A program made the position numbers and the translations under genes. A DNA stretch of 43,776 nt from the IMG/VR virus record IMGVR_UViG_2537562190_000013. One strand, written 5' to 3'. Positions 1-10,588 of the stretch are shown here, in pieces; the stretch's first letter is position 1, and each line of letters starts with the position of its first letter. Origin of the DNA: a virus. Taxonomy: Duplodnaviria > Heunggongvirae > Uroviricota > Caudoviricetes. The notes beneath the pieces are model-generated. The model had not been told where the DNA came from. It was given only the letters and a program-made list of their open reading frames with translations, and ran no database searches.

Positions 1-263
1 CAGCAGATTATCAGGCGCAACTGAAGCGGCATAATCTGCGTGGAAGTATGAGCGCAAAAGGTTGCTGCTACGATAATGCCTGCGTGGAAAGCTTCTTTCA
101 TTCGCTGAAAGTGGAATGTATCCATGGAGAACACTTTATCAGCCGGGAAATAATGCGGGCAACGGTGTTTAATTATATCGAATGTGATTACAATCGGTGG
201 CGGCGGCACAGTTGGTGTGGCGGCCTCAGTCCGGAACAATTTGAAAACAAGAACCTCGCTTAG
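1..263 (+). CDS. insF: IS3 transposase OrfB (InsF-like), C-terminal fragment, 5' end outside window
   Basis: Reading frame open from position 3; translation ...[45 protein letters not shown]... includes the DDE-transposase YDNA..E motif region. Confidence 0.8.
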
Positions 264-293
264 GCCTGTGTCCATATTACGTGGGTAGGATCA
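1..293 (+). mobile_element. IS3 element, right-end fragment (continues left of window); terminal inverted repeat ends ...GTGGGTAGGATCA at 293
   Basis: ORF at 1-263 matches the C-terminus of IS3 OrfB as I recall it; the following sequence ctcgcttaggcctgtgtccatattacgtgggtaggatca matches the IS3 right inverted repeat from memory. Confidence 0.8.
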
Positions 294-414
294 CGCAGGG
301 GTCGGCCCATTTGAGCTTCAGATAGGAACGTTTGAATTCCTTTCACAAAATACATCACATACTGAACGTGAACATTCCCACTTTGATCTTAAGGCCAAAA
401 AGTATGCAGGACTA

Positions 415-2133
415 ATGATTTTTAGGGATAGCTTGAGAGTATTACCTTATGGTCGAGTAGATAATGATTTCTTCCAGATAGAAGAAAGACGTTCATGGAA
501 TGCAGGGCGATATTATTGGTCTAATAGAAGGATTTTTGGTTATATTGGAATTACTCAATCCAGTAATAAAGAGCTGAAAGATAAGTCGGGGAGAGAGGGA
601 TTCATAAGAAACCAGGCTGCAAGAGAACTGAAAACTATTATATCTAATTTGTTAACTGAACTTGCTGATAGATTTTTTGGTTCACGTTCTGATGACCGTA
701 AAGAGCTTTTAGAACAAGTTAAGCGTGAAAAAGAGTTAAGAAAATCTGCTCAACAACAAGCTCGAAAATCAACACAAAAAAGTTTTTCAGAAGCTTTGAA
801 GAATCAGACACCAGTTCTTGATGCTTCCTTGGAGGCTGTTAAAAGGCTGAAAACTAAGCTTGATAAAACTGATGGTTCGTTAGATTTAAACTATCTTAAA
901 ATTATAGACAGTGATCTTACAAACTTAGATGCGTTGCGCAGTGAAATTAAAACGCCTATCAAACCTCCAAAACTTGGAATGTATGAAGAGAAATATAGAG
1001 ACTACAGAGATAAATTTAATGAGTTCTCTGCGTATATTCTACAAATGAAGTTAGCAATTAATAAACTTGATTCTGAATTAAATAAACTTGAGCCTTCATT
1101 GTCAGCGAAAAATCACCTTGAAAAAAATCAAGGTATTATTAATTCTAAACTAACTAAGTTTAATAACACGATAGAGGAGAAGATACATTCTCTTTTAAAA
1201 AAATGGGCCGATGAAATAAAGGTTGATCGAAGTGATTATTATGCTAAAACTATATCAGTTGTTGATTCAATAGATAATGATTCACAAATTGAAAATGTGT
1301 TTAATTTGCTCGATAGTTTATATGTTGAGTCAGTTGATACCCTAACTTTCAAATATCAATCAATAATAAAAGGTCTCGATAGATTATTTGAAGGTATAAA
1401 CTTAGATTCAGCATTCTCATTATCTGAAGAAGAACGCTCATATTTTGAAGAAAAAGCTAAAAGTTTAAACGCGCTTGCACAGTTAGGTATTAGTGTTGAG
1501 ATAATATCTCATGAACTTGAAGAAATGGATTCTATGGTAACCAGAGGACTAAACTCTCTTCCTACTTCTGTAAAAGAACACCCTGGTTTTTCATTGGCGT
1601 TAAATGCTCACAGATCGCTTACTCAACAAATACGTTTCTTATCACCTTTGAAAATATCAGGTTATCAATCCAGGCAGAGAATAACTGGAAAAAATATCAT
1701 GGATTATGTCCTGAAGTTCTTTGGGGAGCGTTTCGAACGGCAACGAATAACTATTGAATTTAGTGAAGAGTTTAAGCAAATCGCAATAACAGATATACCA
1801 TCAAGGATCTATCCTGTTTTTACTAATATTATCAACAATGCAATGTATTGGGTCAGTCTGTCAAATAATAGGCTCATAAAGATTGGTTTTGTGAATTCTT
1901 TGGTTATCATAGCAAATTCTGGTCCGGCAATTGATACCGATGATATCCCGCGACTATTTGAACTATTTTATAGCAAAAGAGCAAATGGACATGGGGTAGG
2001 TCTGTATCTATGTCGAGAAAACCTTGCTGTTGCACATCATAAAATATGGTATTTAGAACCTGATGAAGGCGATAACTATTTAATAAAAGATGGCGCTAAT
2101 TTTGTGATCCAGTTCAATGGAGTGGAGTTCTAA
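415..2133 (+). CDS. Cytoplasmic histidine-kinase-like protein: N-terminal coiled-coil-rich region, H-box-like ISHELEE, C-terminal HATPase_c (GHKL) domain
   Basis: 572-aa ORF; N-box-like NIINNAMYW, G1-like ANSGPAID and G2-like GHGVGLYLCRE motifs near the C-terminus; no obvious transmembrane segments; AT-rich codon usage; frame is open back to 334 with an in-frame stop at 331-333. Confidence 0.6.
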   Translation: MIFRDSLRVLPYGRVDNDFFQIEERRSWNAGRYYWSNRRIFGYIGITQSSNKELKDKSGREGFIRNQAARELKTIISNLLTELADRFFGSRSDDRKELLEQVKREKELRKSAQQQARKSTQKSFSEALKNQTPVLDASLEAVKRLKTKLDKTDGSLDLNYLKIIDSDLTNLDALRSEIKTPIKPPKLGMYEEKYRDYRDKFNEFSAYILQMKLAINKLDSELNKLEPSLSAKNHLEKNQGIINSKLTKFNNTIEEKIHSLLKKWADEIKVDRSDYYAKTISVVDSIDNDSQIENVFNLLDSLYVESVDTLTFKYQSIIKGLDRLFEGINLDSAFSLSEEERSYFEEKAKSLNALAQLGISVEIISHELEEMDSMVTRGLNSLPTSVKEHPGFSLALNAHRSLTQQIRFLSPLKISGYQSRQRITGKNIMDYVLKFFGERFERQRITIEFSEEFKQIAITDIPSRIYPVFTNIINNAMYWVSLSNNRLIKIGFVNSLVIIANSGPAIDTDDIPRLFELFYSKRANGHGVGLYLCRENLAVAHHKIWYLEPDEGDNYLIKDGANFVIQFNGVEF

Positions 2134-2134
2134 T

Positions 2135-3496
2135 ATGACAGTGGCAAATTATAATTCTCTTGTCCAGAAAACTTTCTGCGAAAATGCAATTCGTTCCGTT
2201 GTCATGATTGATGACGATTTTCTGACGTATTCTGAATCAATCAGGGCGTTGAATAACGAAGTTGATTTAGACTACAACAAAATTGACTCATCTAAACGAG
2301 CCGCTACTCTTGAGAGCTTTTTTCAATCTAAAAATATGATTTGTGATGTTGACAATGGTTCTGTTAATTTCGATGTGGATCGGATTAGAAAATCAGATCT
2401 TATTATTGTAGATTATCATCTTGATAATAATGCACCTGATAAAACACTTAAACTATTACAAGATTTGAAAGACTCCGATCATTTAAATATGATTGTAATA
2501 TATACTAGAGAGAATTTAGAAACGGTTTGGATGCAGATATCATCGACTCTCAAAGGTGCTCTGGATATCAACAGCTTGATCATTGACTACGATAATGAAG
2601 ATGTCCAAAGTTATTGGGAAGACGTTGTATTACCGAACTTAAATGATAATGGTAATAAAGCTCTCACAAGAGATGAAACAATAGCCTATATTAAAGACAG
2701 TAAGCCTTGTAGAAGAATTAAAAGATTAATACATGATGATGCTGTGTTGGAGGATCAAAAGGATAAAAACTTCATTGCAAAAATGATTGCAGAATATGCT
2801 GTGTCTAGAAATGCAATTATTTCTAGCAACACATCTGGCAATGTCATTCGGGGTGATGAAAGCGGAGTAAAATGGATTCAATGTGGTAATATCTTTGTCT
2901 CCCTATTTCATAAGGTTCAAGATGATCATGAAAACGATGGAGATAGGATTTGGCAAACTCTCAATGATTCTCTCATTGAATGGAAACCATCTTATTATCA
3001 GTTAATAAAATCTGAAATTCAGAATGCAATCGAAGCTGAGGCTTTATCTTTTGTAAATCATTTGGCTAACGATCATTACGGTCAAGCTGCGTGGTTAAAT
3101 GAGATATTAAAATCAGACTCGCCTGATATTAGATGTAGAAATATTGACTTTGTATTTGGTAATTTATCAGAAGAGCTTTATCAAAGACTTAAAAATAATA
3201 ATACGCTGGATGAATTTATCAAAAGTGTTTTTGATAGCTATTCAAATGAATACGCTAACAGCGGAGTTGCTGCATTGCTCCAATATTGCTCTTCAAAAAT
3301 GGATCTGCCATCAAATAATGATACTTATCACGAAATGTATCATGCTTTAAATATGAATTTGTCTTCAAAGAATTTTGAAGATGGTCATATTTCTACTGGC
3401 ACTATTTTCTTTGATACAGAGTCGAACAAATGGTATTTATGTGTATCTGCGGCATGTGATTTGGTTCCTACTCAGGGTAACGACCCTCACCATGTA
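2135..3496 (+). pseudogene. Receiver (REC)-like domain protein with large unknown C-terminal domain, 5' part; interrupted by IS629-like insertion
   Basis: ORF overlaps upstream gene (stop TAA 2131-2133, ATG 2135, GGAG upstream); REC-like motifs VVMIDDD ... DLIIVDYHL ... MIVIYT; the stop TGA at 3497-3499 is supplied by the first bases of the IS. Confidence 0.6.
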
Positions 3497-3538
3497 TGAA
3501 CCGCCCCGGGTTTCCTGGAGAGTGTTTTATCTGTGAAC

Positions 3539-4426
3539 TCAGGCTGCCAGATCATTATTTCCGATGGAAGCATAATAAGCTTTTTCTGCTTCTGCCGGAG
3601 GAATATGGCCCAGCCTTTCCAGCAATCGTCGATTGTTATACCAGTCCACCCACGTTAGTGTGGCCTGTTCCACTTCTGTCCGGTTTTTCCAGCTCTTACG
3701 GTGTATTACCTCCGCTTTGTAAAGACCATTGATGCTCTCAGCCATCGCGTTGTCATACGAGTCGCCAGTACTCCCTGTTGATGCCAGTAATCCGGCTTCC
3801 TTAAGCCGCTGCGTGTAGGCCAGCGATACATACTGAGAACCTTTATCACTGTGATGGATTGTGCCGGACGGCCGACGGGCCCACAACGCCTGCTCCAGTG
3901 CATCCAGCACGAATGTTGTTTCCATGGATGATGAGACCTGCCATCCCACGATGTATCCGGCGAACACATCAATGATGAACGCCACATAAACGAAGCCCTG
4001 CCATGTGCTTACCCAGGTAAAATCAGCCACCCACAACTGGTCTGGACGTTCTGCCACGAACTGACGGTTTACGCGGTCGCATGCGGCAACGGCTTTCCGG
4101 CTGACGGTAGTGCGGACCTTTTTACCCCGGAGAACACCGGCAAGTCCCATAACTGCCATGAGACGTGCCACAGTGCATCTGGCCACTCTGATACCTTCCC
4201 GTAACAACTGACGCCAGACTTTACGCACACCGTATACCTGGTGATTTTCATCGTATACGCGCTGTATCTCTTTCTTCAGCCAGTCATCGTGCTGCGCACG
4301 GGCACTGCGTTTATCCGGATGATGTCGCTGTTGCTGACAATGGTAATACGTTGACGGGGCAATATGCAGTTCGCTGCATACCGGTCCGACCCCGTACTGC
4401 TCACGCAGCTTATCCAGCAGTGGCAT
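3539..4426 (-). CDS. IS3-family transposase OrfB (DDE integrase core)
   Basis: 295-aa [16 protein letters not shown]...; DDE region ...SDKGSQY...YDNAMAESINGLYKAE... Confidence 0.85.
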   Translation of the reverse strand: MPLLDKLREQYGVGPVCSELHIAPSTYYHCQQQRHHPDKRSARAQHDDWLKKEIQRVYDENHQVYGVRKVWRQLLREGIRVARCTVARLMAVMGLAGVLRGKKVRTTVSRKAVAACDRVNRQFVAERPDQLWVADFTWVSTWQGFVYVAFIIDVFAGYIVGWQVSSSMETTFVLDALEQALWARRPSGTIHHSDKGSQYVSLAYTQRLKEAGLLASTGSTGDSYDNAMAESINGLYKAEVIHRKSWKNRTEVEQATLTWVDWYNNRRLLERLGHIPPAEAEKAYYASIGNNDLAA

Positions 4427-4752
4427 TATTTTTTCCAGAGGCGGTCGAACTCCGCCTTCGCAAAATAAGCGGAAGCCTGGCGAAGGATATCGTTACTGCG
4501 GCGCAGTTCACGATTTTCACGTTCCAGCTCTTTCAGACGCTGACGTTCAGCGGTGGTGAGTCCACCATCACCACTCCCGGTATCCCGCTCATGCTGGCGA
4601 ACCCAGACACGCAGAGTCTCCGGCGTACAGCCAATCTTTGGGGCAATGGAACAAATTGCCGCCCACTGTGAGTCATATTCATCCTGACTTTCCAGAACCA
4701 TACGAATCGCCCGCTGACGGACTTCGGGGGAAAAACGAGTATTTTTAGTCAT
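4426..4752 (-). CDS. IS3-family transposase OrfA (HTH, leucine-zipper region)
   Basis: 108-aa [22 protein letters not shown]...; overlaps orfB across an AAAAAA slippery stretch, typical of -1 frameshift-generated OrfAB. Confidence 0.85.
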
Positions 4753-4809
4753 CCTGTTTACCTCTTTCTCAGGGAGTTTAGTCTCCAGGATTTCCGGGGC
4801 GGTTCAGTA

Positions 4810-5196
4810 AGATTAAGTCCGCACAGGCTCATTAAAGTTCTGGAGCTTTTTAACGCCAGTCAGAGTAAAGCATTGCCATTTGCTGAACATTCGAAATATA
4901 TATATGTAATGCATAAAAATCAAAGAAAATATCTCTCTATTTTCGAAGGGGATAAAACGCTTCCTGTTGTTGATTATATGGTGGTGTTGAATCATGGAAC
5001 AACAGTTGATGGCGAAGAAAAAAATATTATTTCTGCCGTGTTTTTAAGTAATATGGATGGCAACGTGCAAAATGTTCCTGTCCGACTCAAACTTAAATCT
5101 CAACTGAGAACTGGTTATGCAGAAAGATATCAGGCTATAGCGTCTCAGTATAGCTCAAGGATTGGTGTGGATTATGTATCAATGATGCTACCATAA
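4810..5196 (+). pseudogene. 3' part of the IS-interrupted REC-domain gene (in frame with 2135-3496 once the IS and one GTA repeat are removed)
   Basis: Frame of 2135-3496 continues without stop from 4810 to the TAA at 5194-5196; the track ORF 4873-5196 is the tail of this frame. Confidence 0.6.
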
Positions 5197-5267
5197 TTAT
5201 TATATTTTAGGCGTGGTGATTTTTTTTCGCCATGCCTATTTTATATTTATCATCACAATGATGTTGT

Positions 5268-5684
5268 TTATTTTTGTTTAAGTCTTCTAAGCTTCATGCA
5301 TTCTAATGAGAATAATAATAGAGTTGTGCTGTATATAAAGCCAGAGTTAGTTAATAACTTTAAATTTAATGCTTCAGGATTTTCACTGAGAAAGTGAAAG
5401 GCATAAACTAAGTATACAGCTAAAGTAGCCGTTCCAATTGTTGGTCCAATATCGCCTTGATCATGAGGTTCAAGGTTTACATTGAACTTGAAGATTAGCC
5501 ATTCAAATCCCCAAGTAAAAAAAACAACTAATATCATGGCTGCGAATAATTTCGCGATGTTATCTGCTGATGGATTCATCAGAACAGATTGTTTCTGAAA
5601 AAATTCACAAAGTGAGAGTCCGAAAAAAATAAAAAAAAGTGGTCTGGAACTAAATTTTTCAAAAACTTTGAATAGGGTTTCCAT
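5268..5684 (-). CDS. Small hydrophobic (putative membrane) protein, unknown function
   Basis: 138-aa ORF with several hydrophobic stretches (FFIFFGLSLCEFF, AAMILVVFFTWGFEWLIF, ATLAVYLVYAFHF); AT-rich. Confidence 0.45.
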   Translation of the reverse strand: METLFKVFEKFSSRPLFFIFFGLSLCEFFQKQSVLMNPSADNIAKLFAAMILVVFFTWGFEWLIFKFNVNLEPHDQGDIGPTIGTATLAVYLVYAFHFLSENPEALNLKLLTNSGFIYSTTLLLFSLECMKLRRLKQK

Positions 5685-5740: not shown

Positions 5741-6952
5741 TTATCTTTGAGCTTGAACGTAATCACTCCACCATTGCATCAAACTCTGTCGCTCTATCAG
5801 ATATTCTGCACGATTGTATGCTGCGATAATTTCATCTTTTTTCGAGTGGGCAAGCGCTGCCTCAAGAACTTCAGCTCTGAATTTACCAGACTCCTCTGCC
5901 GCTGTTCGTGCAATAGAACGCATACCGTGAGCTACAAGCTCGCCTCCGAACCCCATTCGGATGATAGCTGCGTTGGCTGTTTGTTCATGCATATGATTAA
6001 GAGGCGCTTTTATGCTGGGGAAAACCCATTCTCTATGCCCACTTATTGATTTCATTAATTCAAGGATGCGCAAAGCTTCTTTACTCAAAGGAACTTTGTG
6101 AAGCTTTTTCATTTTCATGAAATCAGCAGGAATGTTCCAAATGCTGTTGGTTGTATCAATATCAGACCACCTTGCGCGAACGGCTTCACCCGGACGAACC
6201 CATGTCAACAATTGCCATTCAATTAGCATACGTGTTTCCAACCGGATTGACGCATTCGTCAAAGATTCCATAAACCTTGGCAATTCGCTTGGGGGAAGGG
6301 CAGGCATATTTTGCTTTTTTGGTTTACTGAATCTTTGACCAAGGTTGTCAGCCGGGTTGAACTCAATAAGTTCTTCAGTAGCTGCCCACCGGAAGATTTC
6401 ATTCAGACGTGAAATGATACGGCGTAGAGTTTCCAATACGCCTCGTTGCTCAATAGGATCAAGGTGTTGTTTTAAGAGCTTAGGTCGGATCTCATTGATA
6501 GGGACATTACCCAGACCGGGAAAGACATTTCTCTCTAAGCTGCGCCAGATGTCTGCTGCATGGTCTTGTGAGATACCTGATGTCTTTACCTTCTCATCTA
6601 ACCATTTCCGCGCTACGGCTTGGAGAGTGTGCTCAGTAGCACTCTTTAATGCCTTCGCCTTATCGTTGTTATGGATTTGGGGATCAACACCATTTGCCAG
6701 AAAGGAGAGATATTCATCACGTAAGGCTCTGGCTCTTGCAAGGGTAAGGTGAGGATATGTCCCAAGGCTCATTTTGGTTCTTTTCTTGCTCACTGGTACT
6801 GCATACCTGAAATACCAATTTTTCTTGCCTCCTTTCGCCAAAGGAGCGATTCGTAGAATCAGACCATCACCGTCAAACAAGTTGATTTCTTTATCGGCTG
6901 GCTTGGTGCTTTTGATTTCAGTGTCAGTGAGCTTCTTAGCGATTTTTGCCAT
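5741..6952 (-). CDS. int: Tyrosine recombinase / P4-type integrase
   Basis: N-terminal arm-binding-like MAKIAKKLTDTEIKSTKP...LFDGDGL; C-terminal catalytic-domain-like motifs; ATG at 6952 has a GAGGG ribosome-binding site; the track ORF extends to 6994. Confidence 0.85.
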   Translation of the reverse strand: MAKIAKKLTDTEIKSTKPADKEINLFDGDGLILRIAPLAKGGKKNWYFRYAVPVSKKRTKMSLGTYPHLTLARARALRDEYLSFLANGVDPQIHNNDKAKALKSATEHTLQAVARKWLDEKVKTSGISQDHAADIWRSLERNVFPGLGNVPINEIRPKLLKQHLDPIEQRGVLETLRRIISRLNEIFRWAATEELIEFNPADNLGQRFSKPKKQNMPALPPSELPRFMESLTNASIRLETRMLIEWQLLTWVRPGEAVRARWSDIDTTNSIWNIPADFMKMKKLHKVPLSKEALRILELMKSISGHREWVFPSIKAPLNHMHEQTANAAIIRMGFGGELVAHGMRSIARTAAEESGKFRAEVLEAALAHSKKDEIIAAYNRAEYLIERQSLMQWWSDYVQAQR

Positions 6953-7117
6953 TTTGGGACCCTCGGTTTTTGGACCCTTCTTAGTGGGTCCCATTCAGGG
7001 TGCCATAACTCGTAGTTCTCAGCAATTCTCACTGGACGACAATAGACGTAAAAAAGCCCGCAGAGCTTGTGCTGTGTGGGCTTAGTAGACTTCATTGAAC
7101 TTCAAACAACTAAAAAG

Positions 7118-7149
7118 TGGTGGAGCTGGCGGGAGTTGAACCAGCGTCC
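7118..7149 (-). other. att core: 32-bp copy of tmRNA (ssrA) 3' end (T-arm plus acceptor stem plus CCA), not a complete gene
   Basis: Minus-strand reading GGACGCTGGTTCAACTCCCGCCAGCTCCACCA; sequence further upstream does not continue as tmRNA. Confidence 0.7.
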
Positions 7150-7239: not shown

Positions 7240-7905
7240 TTATGGATTCTTGCTTAAAAAATATTCGAAGTTATGGTTGCCAAGCACATACCTCATTTCT
7301 CCCCGTGTGCGGTAAAAAGAAGTTTGAATCTCATCAACATAGTAGTTAAAAAAAATCTTTAACATTTCGGTAGTCATCTTTTGCAAATGGGTTGACAGTT
7401 TAGCTGCATTACTTTTTGAATCAGACTTTAATAAATCTGGAAATGATGCTGTGATATTTAATTTAACTTTAGATGATGAGTGTAACCAGCCACATGCTTG
7501 TTTATACTGTGAATGCATGTACGCCCAGTTTTCATCAGTGTTGGTAGATTTAAGATTCTCGAAATCAAGAGTTCTAATTGTAATATCGAAATCCCCCCCG
7601 TTATCAACTTTTTGTAAGGATATACGTGCAAGATGTTCAATCATTGAGCGAAAATTAAGATGAAGATATCGCTCTCGTTTATGAAGTATCGCTGTAATTG
7701 AACTTAAAACATCATAAATAATACTTTTTATAAAGGTTTTGTGACTTATTTCTGGATGTGAGTTATGGATAAACTCCAGAAAAAGTACATGTTTATAAGC
7801 CGATGTAAGATTGTTTTCGGTGCGAATATCGACCTGAAATGATTTTATCATTGTGATAAATTCTTTCACGTCTTTTCTAAATCCATGTGGGTCTCTTTGA
7901 AGCAT
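7240..7905 (-). CDS. Hypothetical protein, third gene of ParA-like operon
   Basis: 221-aa ORF; start ATG overlaps upstream stop (TAATG); AT-rich; no recognised motifs. Confidence 0.55.
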   Translation of the reverse strand: MLQRDPHGFRKDVKEFITMIKSFQVDIRTENNLTSAYKHVLFLEFIHNSHPEISHKTFIKSIIYDVLSSITAILHKRERYLHLNFRSMIEHLARISLQKVDNGGDFDITIRTLDFENLKSTNTDENWAYMHSQYKQACGWLHSSSKVKLNITASFPDLLKSDSKSNAAKLSTHLQKMTTEMLKIFFNYYVDEIQTSFYRTRGEMRYVLGNHNFEYFLSKNP

Positions 7906-8318
7906 TATTTTCTATCCTTCTTCAAAAGAGCATTAATCCACGTACCTACATCTCGATTTGCATTACGTTTGACGTTACTTTTTTTAAAAGTAAGTGAGTT
8001 TTCATTATATCCAATAATAAATTTGTCAGTTTTAAAATACTCTGATGCTTTATATATGCATTCTTTAATGTCTCTCTCGCTCATATTTACAAGATTACGG
8101 GTAAGTCTAGCGCATAATAAAGTTCTTGACTTGATGACGTAGTCTAAGAAACTTAATCCAAATACATTTTTTACGAATTCTGCTGCATCTTCATTTTTAA
8201 CAAAAATTTCCCTAGAATAGATTGCTATTGTTATCAAACCAATAAACGCTTCTTTTGACGAGGGCTTCTTATAAACCAATGTCTGTAATAATTCGAGGTT
8301 GTTACTATTTTTATTCAT
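7905..8318 (-). CDS. Hypothetical protein, second gene of ParA-like operon
   Basis: 137-aa ORF overlapping ParA-like gene by 8 nt; AT-rich; no recognised motifs. Confidence 0.55.
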   Translation of the reverse strand: MNKNSNNLELLQTLVYKKPSSKEAFIGLITIAIYSREIFVKNEDAAEFVKNVFGLSFLDYVIKSRTLLCARLTRNLVNMSERDIKECIYKASEYFKTDKFIIGYNENSLTFKKSNVKRNANRDVGTWINALLKKDRK

Positions 8319-9162
8319 CTTCCCCCCCCGTTTGCACTTCTTGGATCCGACTTAAAAACTCTTCACAAATCGCTTTGATATATTTTCTGGATGATTTATA
8401 ACTTGATGATATATTACCTCTACCACCCACCATCAAATCCTGTACAAACTTCAACTGGTTATCAAAAAAGTATAGTTCATTAAAAGGTTCAGTACTTTCA
8501 AAGTCTGTCTTTAGCTTTTTTGTCTTTTTTGATAGATTTTCTAGGGTATTAGTATAAATAAAACCAAGGTTTTGAATGTTTTTATGGTCATAATTATCTT
8601 GAATGTTTTCTATTACGCTTAAAAGACTTGTCGCACCTAAAATTGAGTAGTGGTCAATTTTAACTGGCACAATATAATAATCTGAAGCAACGAGAGCTGC
8701 ATCAGTAAATAATGAAATGGTTGGTGGGCTATCGATCAAAATGAAGTCATATATATCTCGAAGCTTATGTTCTTCTATAAAGCGTTTTAGCTTATGTAAT
8801 CTTGCCGCAGGTTGTTCAATATCAAATATTGTATTAATATCACCAAAAATCATATCTAAGTGCTCTGACATCTTGATGATAATTTCATCAGGAGTGACCT
8901 GCTGAACTTTACCCGTTAAGCTTGATTTTGTCTCGAATATTCGTCTGATGGTTTTTGTATTTTCTAAGTGATCAGCTATATACTCTTTCACTCGATCATA
9001 TTTACTAAGTATTGACTGTGTAGCGTTAAATTGTGGGTCAATATCGATAATTAATACCTTTTTATCCATGAAGTTTGCAAGATATTCAGCAATGCCGACG
9101 CATAAAGTTGTTTTACCAACCCCACCTTTCATATTTATGAAACTTATTACTGGTGTAGTCAT
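8311..9162 (-). CDS. ParA/MinD/Soj-family P-loop ATPase (small, type Ib-like, no N-terminal HTH)
   Basis: Deviant Walker A MKGGVGKTT, A' motif IIDIDPQ, Walker B FILIDSPP; GGGA ribosome-binding site. Confidence 0.75.
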   Translation of the reverse strand: MTTPVISFINMKGGVGKTTLCVGIAEYLANFMDKKVLIIDIDPQFNATQSILSKYDRVKEYIADHLENTKTIRRIFETKSSLTGKVQQVTPDEIIIKMSEHLDMIFGDINTIFDIEQPAARLHKLKRFIEEHKLRDIYDFILIDSPPTISLFTDAALVASDYYIVPVKIDHYSILGATSLLSVIENIQDNYDHKNIQNLGFIYTNTLENLSKKTKKLKTDFESTEPFNELYFFDNQLKFVQDLMVGGRGNISSSYKSSRKYIKAICEEFLSRIQEVQTGGEDE

Positions 9163-9412: not shown

Positions 9413-10588
9413 CTACTTTTTGCAATTACTTGTGAGCGTTGTTGAGCTGTGGTTGTCATAATCACTCAAGTAACGCCCATAATGACGAAACAACATTTCG
9501 GGCCCCTTATGCCCCATCTGCCCTGCTAGCCAGAAGAGATTAGCTCCTTGGCTAATGTACTTAGTAGCATAAGTGTGCCTGGTCTGATATGGGTTTCTGT
9601 AGCGAATACCTGCTTTTCGCAATGTTGGCACCCATGCTTTTTTCCTGATTGCATCAGCACTTGCCCAAGGCTTATTGGTCTTTGGATCTTCAAAGACCGT
9701 AGCATCTTTCATGAACGTAAATGGCTTCTGATTTATCAGCGCCAACATTGCCTCTTCTGTCAGTTCAACTTTACGAGTACCGGCTTTTGTTTTGGTCCCT
9801 TTGATAACACCAACAACACTTGCGCTCTGGACATGTGCTGTTTTTCCAACAAAGTCGATATCACGCCATCGAAGGGCACATAGTTCAGAACTACGCAGGC
9901 CTGTATGTATAGCGAACCGGAACAGATTTTCCCATTGTTTGTTTCCGGCTGCTGCTAGTAATGCATCAACTTCTGCTGGTGATAGCGGATCAACCACATA
10001 GCTGCTTTCTGCTTCTGACTTATCACTTTGGTAGCGCGAAGCTGTTACTAACGATACGGGGTTAATTTGAAGTACCCCATCGGTCACGGCTTCATCAAGT
10101 GCTGACCGCAGGAAAGATAACTGGTTGCGAATGGTTTTTAAGGTTGTTTTCTGGCTTTGAATCCACGCTTTCAGGGTTGCTGGTGTTAATTCACTTGCAG
10201 GGCAAATGTGAAGTGAGGCTAACGCACTACGGCATTTTTTATAGCCACCAATCGTAGAGGGTGAAAGTTTTCTTGTTTCGCAGATTTCAAGATATTCGTC
10301 CAGGTACATCTTTACCGTTTTGCCTGCAGCAGCATTACCAAAAATTTTCAAACGAGCAGAACGGGGAAAATATTCTGCATAAATGAATGTTCCCCTTTCG
10401 ATCTTATTATGGATTTCGCCGAGTGTACGCTCGGCGTATTTAATGTTCTTTGGTGTTACTTCCAGATTGGAAAGCGGCTCACGACATCTAACTCCTTTGT
10501 AGGTGAAAGTTATATTGATCGTTTCGCCCTGGCGGTGTTTCCTGATTGTTACGCCGCGCGGTAGTTTGAGCAGTTTTGTCTGGCCCAT
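9413..10588 (-). CDS. int: Prophage tyrosine integrase
   Basis: 391-aa ORF with C-terminal catalytic-domain-like motifs (...HTGLRSSEL..., ...TRHTYAT..., ...LAGQMGHK...); overlaps the upstream xis-like gene. Confidence 0.85.
   Translation of the reverse strand: MGQTKLLKLPRGVTIRKHRQGETINITFTYKGVRCREPLSNLEVTPKNIKYAERTLGEIHNKIERGTFIYAEYFPRSARLKIFGNAAAGKTVKMYLDEYLEICETRKLSPSTIGGYKKCRSALASLHICPASELTPATLKAWIQSQKTTLKTIRNQLSFLRSALDEAVTDGVLQINPVSLVTASRYQSDKSEAESSYVVDPLSPAEVDALLAAAGNKQWENLFRFAIHTGLRSSELCALRWRDIDFVGKTAHVQSASVVGVIKGTKTKAGTRKVELTEEAMLALINQKPFTFMKDATVFEDPKTNKPWASADAIRKKAWVPTLRKAGIRYRNPYQTRHTYATKYISQGANLFWLAGQMGHKGPEMLFRHYGRYLSDYDNHSSTTLTSNCKK

Follow-up and report, generated by a model that had tools for sequence, protein, structure and literature searches.

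We wondered what had broken a receiver gene in the 43,776-nucleotide stretch of DNA catalogued as IMG/VR virus record IMGVR_UViG_2537562190_000013 (Caudoviricetes), which is referred to here, at its full length, as the window. The gene runs from position 2135 to position 5196, its protein carries the PF19192 Response_reg_2 domain, and an insertion sequence (IS) lies inside it. Is this the trace of one precise and recent transposition, of long decay, or of a rearrangement or assembly join, and what did the gene belong to before it was interrupted? Our analysis leads us to conclude, with very little doubt, that an intact IS629 transposed into codon 454/455 of a 582-codon Response_reg_2 gene on an AT-rich island at ssrA, and that it is an inherited second hit in a module that was already defective. 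Nothing was found that speaks against the insertion itself.

The element is a complete IS629 of the IS3 family that occupies positions 3497 to 4806 (1310 bp), with its transposase genes on the minus strand and therefore opposite to the target gene. Both boundaries can be read directly in the window. On the left, the flank ...CACCATGTA gives way at 3497 to the element, which begins TGAACCGCCCCGGG... and, in a longer reading from the same position, TGAACCGCCCCGGGTTTCCTGGAGA. On the right, the element ends at 4806 with ...CCGGGGCGGTTCA (in a longer reading ...TCTCCAGGATTTCCGGGGCGGTTCA) and is followed by the flank GTAAGATTAAG. The terminal inverted repeats match at 22 of 25 nt (25 nt, 88% complementary), the first 13 nt being perfect. 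The orfA-proximal repeat, which is the left one in the orientation of the element, lies at 4782-4806 on the minus strand, and its perfect 13 nt read TGAACCGCCCCGG; the orfB-distal repeat, the right one in element orientation, lies at 3497-3521 on the minus strand and begins TGA. The termini (TGAACCGCCCCGG...CCGGGGCGGTTCA) are of the TG...CA type, as befits an IS3-family member. Since each of the two end motifs is present only once in the 43.8-kb window, the window holds a single copy of IS629.

Between the repeats lie the two genes of the element. The first, orfA (4426-4752, minus strand), encodes 108 aa with the helix-turn-helix N-terminal part of the transposase (PF01527 HTH_Tnp_1, E=2.9e-12) and covers positions 1-86 of the NCBIfam profile NF033516 transpos_IS3. 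The second, orfB (3539-4426, minus strand), encodes 295 aa when counted from its ATG and carries the DDE (rve) catalytic domain (PF00665 rve, E=5.3e-26). The Pfam domains found in its product are rve, rve_2, rve_3 and HTH_21, and the product scores 313.6 bits against NF033516, for which the cutoff is 160. At the end of orfA there is an A6 run (TGGAAAAAATAATG; TGG AAA AAA TAA), after which the -1 frame is open for 296 codons. This slippery run and an ALIL pseudoknot make up a programmed -1 frameshift region at 4355-4471 on the minus strand (Rfam RF01497), and the pseudoknot matches RF01497 over its full length with 120.3 bits (gathering score 50, E=1.4e-31). The orfB product is thus predicted to be made as an OrfAB fusion through the -1 frameshift, and by its anatomy the element carries every part expected of an active IS3-family member. 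Its GC content is 53%, as against 34% for the target gene.

According to ISfinder, elements with at least 95% nucleotide identity count as isoforms. Along its whole length (1310 of 1310 bp) the window copy has 99.5% identity to what the depositors of phage BP-4795 (AJ556162) annotated as IS629, and it is 98.2% identical to copies in O157 Stx2a phages. The identity to the BP-4795 element together with the shared anatomy justifies the name IS629, and the sequence-only reading, which had described an IS629-like element of 1310 bp bounded by inverted repeats, turned out to be exact in all its coordinates. The window copy is like IS629 (isoforms IS1203 and IS3411) in length, inverted repeats, orfA and orfB, frameshift and 3-bp duplication, and nothing substantial differs. 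In its sequence it is a minority variant, with a copy of at least 99% identity in only 43 of 3384 matching plasmid records. Copies that are 100% identical to it are present on plasmids CP024480 (strain 2011C-4315) and CP031909 (strain FWSEC0007), both of which come from strains that bear the insertion, and these plasmid copies are possible candidates for the donor.

IS629 is reported to make target duplications of 3-4 bp and to have no strict target sequence (PMC3271280). In the window GTA flanks the element on either side. The left copy, at 3494-3496, doubles as codon 454 (Val) of the target gene, and the right copy occupies 4807-4809. When 2135-3496 and 4810-5196 are put together, the result is 1749 nt, or 582 codons, with a lone terminal stop. 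We rejected this open frame as proof of a GTA duplication because the gene also stays in frame when the IS alone is excised and both GTAs are left in place. Moreover, two random 3-mers drawn from the AT-rich target gene are identical by chance in about 2.3% of cases, so that the flanking repeat is by itself weak evidence. The empty sites settle the matter. When the empty site of strain AMSHJX01 is placed in a three-way alignment with both junctions, left and right, one GTA stands between the flanks; the occupied site thus has the trinucleotide twice, and the empty one has it once. The same single-GTA sequence is found in the intact island of other Enterobacterales and in hundreds of E. coli far outside O103:H2, and to judge from these alignments the single-GTA state is certainly the ancestral one. 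The duplication of 3 bp that had been read from the window is therefore proven, because the empty sites carry only one GTA.

The uninterrupted gene is common. When the joined 1749-nt gene was compared with 5426 complete E. coli genomes, at least 80% of its length was found in 560 of them, and among the matches listed most are single unbroken pieces at 99.7-100% identity that are annotated 'response regulator receiver domain'. The joined gene shows zero differences from intact alleles. Homologues from many genera, with lengths of 580-610 aa, continue through the insertion position and have conserved residues on either side of it, so no natural stop exists at this position. The continuous frame from 2135 to 5196 that was expected upon removal of the IS and one GTA thus not only can be reconstructed, with its 582 codons, but also occurs intact in E. 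coli genomes, where the two flanks align as one piece at 100% identity.

What remains of the gene in the window are two fragments on the plus strand. The 5' fragment (2135-3496, codons 1-454) encodes the receiver domain, a helical middle and the first third of a C-terminal domain. The 3' fragment (4810-5196, codons 455-582 and the stop) is annotated as a hypothetical protein without an N-terminus and holds 14 of the 66 positions that are invariant or nearly invariant in the family; Q552, R554, Y557, R571 and D575 are among its conserved residues. The upstream open reading frame (2117-3499) ends at a TGA at 3497-3499, which is formed by the first three bases of IS629 and directly follows Val454. 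Any product of the occupied gene is therefore predicted to be 454 aa long and to be devoid of most of the conserved, beta-rich C-terminal domain. An AlphaFold model of the reconstructed 582-aa protein (predicted local distance difference test score, pLDDT, 85.7; predicted template modelling score, pTM, 0.78) places the helical middle at residues ~145-410 and the beta-rich domain at residues ~411-565, and the cut at residue 454 takes away nearly all strands of the latter. The next gene downstream (5268-5684, minus strand) is convergent with the target gene, which makes a polar effect on the neighbours unlikely.

The same receiver gene has also been hit by another element. ISVsa5 (IS4-like) independently splits it at about codon 303 in the human isolates 571 (Taiwan) and 774; in strain 571 the site lies at 2501-5589 of locus L006. 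A cluster of 1605 'partial' fragments of the protein (P0128) was considered as a count of contigs broken by IS elements and was dropped, as the members have lengths of 221-453 aa and are generic fragments from contig ends.

How widely is the insertion distributed, and how old is it? Queries with the left and the right junction were fully matched at 100% identity in the same 12 of the 5426 complete genomes, all of them close relatives of STEC O103:H2 (STEC: E. coli that produce Shiga toxin) from several countries. Clade labels are available for O103:H2 strains (PMC12831630, Table 3), and clades C4 and C5 arose from C3 (PMC12831630). The site is empty in strains 12009 (clade C1) and PV16-126 (clade C3), while it is occupied in FWSEC0007 and CEC12044 (both clade C4) as well as in 20151001 and 2015C-3163 (both clade C5). 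PV16-126 has the intact gene as an exact match of 1749 nt, and its protein, WP_000214990.1, has the same accession as that of the empty-site strain AMSHJX01. Where the window itself and strain 2015C-3163 overlap, over 14,196 bases, they differ at 2. Because C1 and C3 are empty, C4 and C5 are occupied, and the latter two derive from C3, one insertion on the branch leading to C4 and C5 is the simplest account; most likely the insertion arose once in the common ancestor of these clades and was then inherited vertically. One genome with the occupied site at 100% identity, NZ_CP193494.1 (strain WL1277), is labelled O121, which could reflect an error in the serotype label or a switch of the O antigen.

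The event had been described from the window as recent and clean. The intact IS, its 100% identity to the two plasmid copies, the lack of any difference in the joined gene and the restriction to 12 of 5426 genomes all agree with this, with the qualification that the recency applies to the clade and not to the strain: on the present distribution, the insertion is a clade-level marker, evolutionarily recent and inherited, and not private to one strain. In strain 2015C-3163 the structure is already recorded by RefSeq, which lists two halves of a pseudogene, a transposase of the IS3 family and the pseudoknot. The insertion is thus an ordinary event that has already been annotated, and both its observation and its interpretation are confirmed.

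The history of the locus does not begin with IS629. Directly upstream of the receiver gene lies its partner, the 5'-truncated remnant of a GHKL ATPase/histidine-kinase-like gene (294-2133, plus strand), whose annotated start is an internal ATG at 415 and whose stop codon (2131-2133) is separated by one base from the start of the receiver gene at 2135. The HEF_HK and HATPase_c domains remain in it: the stretch 415-2130 matches PF19191 with 26.1 bits (threshold 24.1) and PF02518 HATPase_c with 42.5 bits (threshold 26.4). Upstream of this ATG the frame stays open as far as position 289, contains no start codon and leads into an IS3 copy, the right end of which (1-293, plus strand, annotated as an IS3-like element) ends ...GTGGGTAGGATCA and abuts the truncation point. 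Translated from 292, the partner agrees at 606 of 613 positions with residues 376-988 of proteins of 988 aa that occur in Salmonella, Klebsiella and Serratia (P0003). These relatives (99% identical) also hold HATPase_c_3 (PF13589) at residues 28-137, a domain that is absent from the window copy. The DNA homology that the window shows to the intact island sets in at window position 293. The flanks of the IS3 copy differ (TTC on the left, CGC on the right), and on its other side it is adjoined by an amylase pseudogene; as there is no target duplication, the pattern fits an IS3-associated deletion. The junction of IS3 and ATPase gene is present in 483 complete E. coli genomes, including O103:H2 clade C3.

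What the deletion removed can be seen from the intact island at smpB/ssrA, which contains, among other genes and in this order, those for a relaxase, a C5 methylase, the ATPase (988 aa), the receiver protein (582 aa), a protein of 138 aa and an integrase. In another enterobacterial assembly (L003, 8812-14717) the end of the C5 methylase gene (402 aa) and the start of the ATPase gene share 20 nt, and the receiver gene comes next. The relaxase gene and two more integrase-family genes lie further upstream in that assembly. Neither the window nor the E. coli island has the C5 methylase, and E. coli is without the arrangement of these three genes; in its island, IS3 and the amylase pseudogene occupy the upstream side. 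By this comparison, the E. coli island was already without the methylase and the N-terminal ~375 codons (38%) of the ATPase before IS629 arrived. Given the prior IS3-associated deletion, IS629 represents a second hit, and it probably inactivated an orphaned component and not a working system. The reading as 'not ancient decay' hence holds for the IS629 event and fails for the locus, the partner gene and methylase of which had been hit earlier by the IS3-associated deletion. The upstream IS3 copy is intact in AMSHJX01 and PV16-126 and is a pseudogene with an internal stop in 2015C-3163 (L001, 5967-7129), so that decay of this IS3 has begun in the C5 strain.

The two genes belong to a module that is known from comparative genomics. 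PF19192 and PF19191 (HEF_HK) were defined by Bellieny-Rabelo et al. 2021 (PMC8011034) as a tightly linked, two-component-like pair, which is usually located beside C5 cytosine methylases and other restriction-modification genes and for which the same study predicts His-Asp phosphotransfer between the partners. Kinase-like proteins with an N-terminal paraMORC-like HATPase_c_3 form the predominant 'group 1' (174 of 222 sequences), and no function is given to the region C-terminal of the receiver domain (PMC8011034). The pair in the window shares with this module the PF19192 receiver, with its CheY-like fold and conserved acidic residues, and the PF19191/HATPase_c neighbour. The intact relatives, with their 988-aa neighbour carrying HATPase_c_3 and their overlapping C5 methylase, show both the architecture and the neighbourhood of group 1, whereas the window copy is a remnant that is without the methylase and HATPase_c_3 and has its receiver gene split by IS629.

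Searches against defence-system and protein-family models gave little. PADLOC models yielded nothing beyond one chance-level match for the receiver protein, the ATPase remnant and the 138-aa neighbour, so the module is not assignable to a catalogued defence system. Among the NCBIfam models there is none for the receiver protein, and the ATPase remnant matches histidine-kinase models in the ATPase region only and far below the cutoffs. Detocs (defensive two-component system; bioRxiv 10.1101/2023.01.24.525353), in which a kinase-like sensor acts with a receiver domain fused to an effector in phage defence, provides a conceptual analogy only, and PADLOC gave no match for either window protein. 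Detocs reportedly consists of three genes and includes a separate buffer receiver and a purine nucleoside phosphorylase (PNP)-type effector, neither of which was found in the window module.

The C-terminal domain that is cut by IS629 may resemble the MazF/CcdB toxin fold, an SH3-like barrel, which is a weak lead. No PemK or CcdB Pfam match was found in 23 family members, even at E<=10, and a profile search of PDB sequences with the C-terminal domain returned chance-level matches only. One might nevertheless speculate that the 582-aa protein is a receiver-gated toxin with a divergent MazF/CcdB-like effector that the paraMORC-type kinase and the methylase would normally restrain, that its control half was lost in E. 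coli through the IS3-associated deletion, and that the orphan was then selected for inactivation. If true, this would account for the independent IS629 and ISVsa5 hits in the C-terminal half, but we give the idea little credence.

Several other histories could be imagined for the split gene. IS copies generally mediate rearrangements and break assemblies, and drafts contain many 'partial' fragments of this protein; the two halves might accordingly meet the IS at a rearrangement or assembly join and not represent a simple insertion site. However, the flanks are contiguous halves of one gene with an intact target duplication, 12 independently closed genomes have the identical structure, and the window departs from 2015C-3163 at only the two bases mentioned above. 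Together with the empty sites, these observations refute an artefact of this kind, and we regard its chance of being correct as negligible. A different proposal is that the insertion is older than clades C4 and C5 and that the empty sites of C1 and C3 are secondary. The iee gene is present on SpLE1-like elements in O103:H2 (PMC9397093), and IEE helps IS3-family elements to excise, with simple excision that gives back gene function among the outcomes (PMC9397093, PMC9943667), which is what such a history would need. Yet, as seen across E. coli and other Enterobacterales, a single GTA is the ancestral state, and an earlier gain followed by at least two perfect excisions is less parsimonious than one gain. 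An older insertion is thus very unlikely.

A somewhat better case, although still an improbable one, can be made for an insertion that was selected and not neutral, in which the receiver protein, orphaned by the loss of the methylase and of the sensor half of the ATPase and with a C-terminal fold that would be toxin-like, became a liability and IS hits that remove its C-terminus were favoured. In line with this, IS629 removes most of the C-terminal domain, ISVsa5 has interrupted the gene independently in strains 571 and 774, and the insertion-bearing clades C4 and C5 are widespread. Conversely, the great majority of the ~560 carriers have the gene intact at 99.7-100% identity and evidently tolerate it, and two IS lineages in ~560 genomes are not clearly above the neutral expectation for a gene on an AT-rich island; the ISVsa5 hits are compatible with neutral decay and with selection against an orphan effector alike. 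In addition, the toxin-fold resemblance finds no support at the sequence level, and IS629 is expanding generally, with 10-17 IS629-matching places in each insertion-bearing genome. We therefore favour an inherited insertion of IS629 into a module that was already defective, even though some points weigh against this interpretation. The truncated ATPase retains its H-box (HEF_HK) and the kinase ATPase domain, and the Prokaryotic Genome Annotation Pipeline (PGAP) calls an intact coding sequence from the internal ATG, so a residual kinase-receiver pair could still have been active when IS629 arrived. Furthermore, hundreds of genomes share a perfectly conserved receiver gene, which may reflect recent spread as well as selection. 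Finally, the single origin is deduced from 12 closed genomes and the published clade labels of six strains.

In the course of events that we propose, an IS3-associated deletion first removed the C5 DNA methylase and the paraMORC-like HATPase_c_3 part of the partner ATPase in E. coli. IS629 then entered codon 454/455 of the receiver gene and duplicated GTA. Copy-out-paste-in transposition through a circular intermediate is established for IS3-family members, and by analogy IS629 may have reached the gene in this way. The hit was presumably neutral or nearly so, falling as it did in a decaying island. As O103:H2 carries iee, the insertion might be reversible by IEE-promoted excision. A comparable case is that of IS600 in lacZ of STEC O121:H19 (PMC9397093), where an IS3-family element likewise interrupts a chromosomal gene cleanly. 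That insertion, too, belongs to a major non-O157 STEC lineage, has been passed on within a circulating clade and could be reversed, as its host carries iee. For IS600, delayed lactose use and excision were demonstrated (PMC9397093), whereas the target in the window has no known phenotype.

The remainder of the window leads from the island to a second element. The integrase of the ssrA-associated island (5741-6994, minus strand) has the domains Arm-DNA-bind_3, Phage_int_M and Phage_integrase, and adjoins ssrA in AMSHJX01. No tRNA or transfer-messenger RNA gene was found in the window, and the ssrA context is taken from other genomes. Homology to strains with a bare ssrA stops near 7149. From ~7150 to 43776 a prophage forms a second integrative element in tandem with the first, with an integrase of its own (9413-10588, minus strand), yfdP/Q/R-like genes and large open reading frames of late-gene size. 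PV16-126 (clade C3) has a related, diverged prophage at the same site, with ~97% identity in patches. Between the two integrases, at the prophage end, 7240-9162 (minus strand) holds a small cassette of three co-oriented genes for a ParA-like ATPase (283 aa, AAA_31/CbiA) followed by proteins of 137 aa and 221 aa, and these last two have no Pfam match.

The insertion adds a further documented instance of IS629 shaping the genomes of non-O157 STEC. Its occupied junction is a marker that can be tested by polymerase chain reaction (PCR) and by k-mers and that separates O103:H2 clades C4/C5 from C1/C3, although its practical value is modest. The earlier damage bears on annotation as well: in ~480 complete E. 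coli genomes, what is annotated as an intact 'ATP-binding protein' of 572 aa is really the 3' 62% of a 988-aa gene, and catalogued architectures of the type 'HEF_HK+HATPase_c without HATPase_c_3' may include such remnants. The more interesting object is the intact module of methylase, paraMORC-like kinase and receiver-effector, of which the window holds only the wreck.

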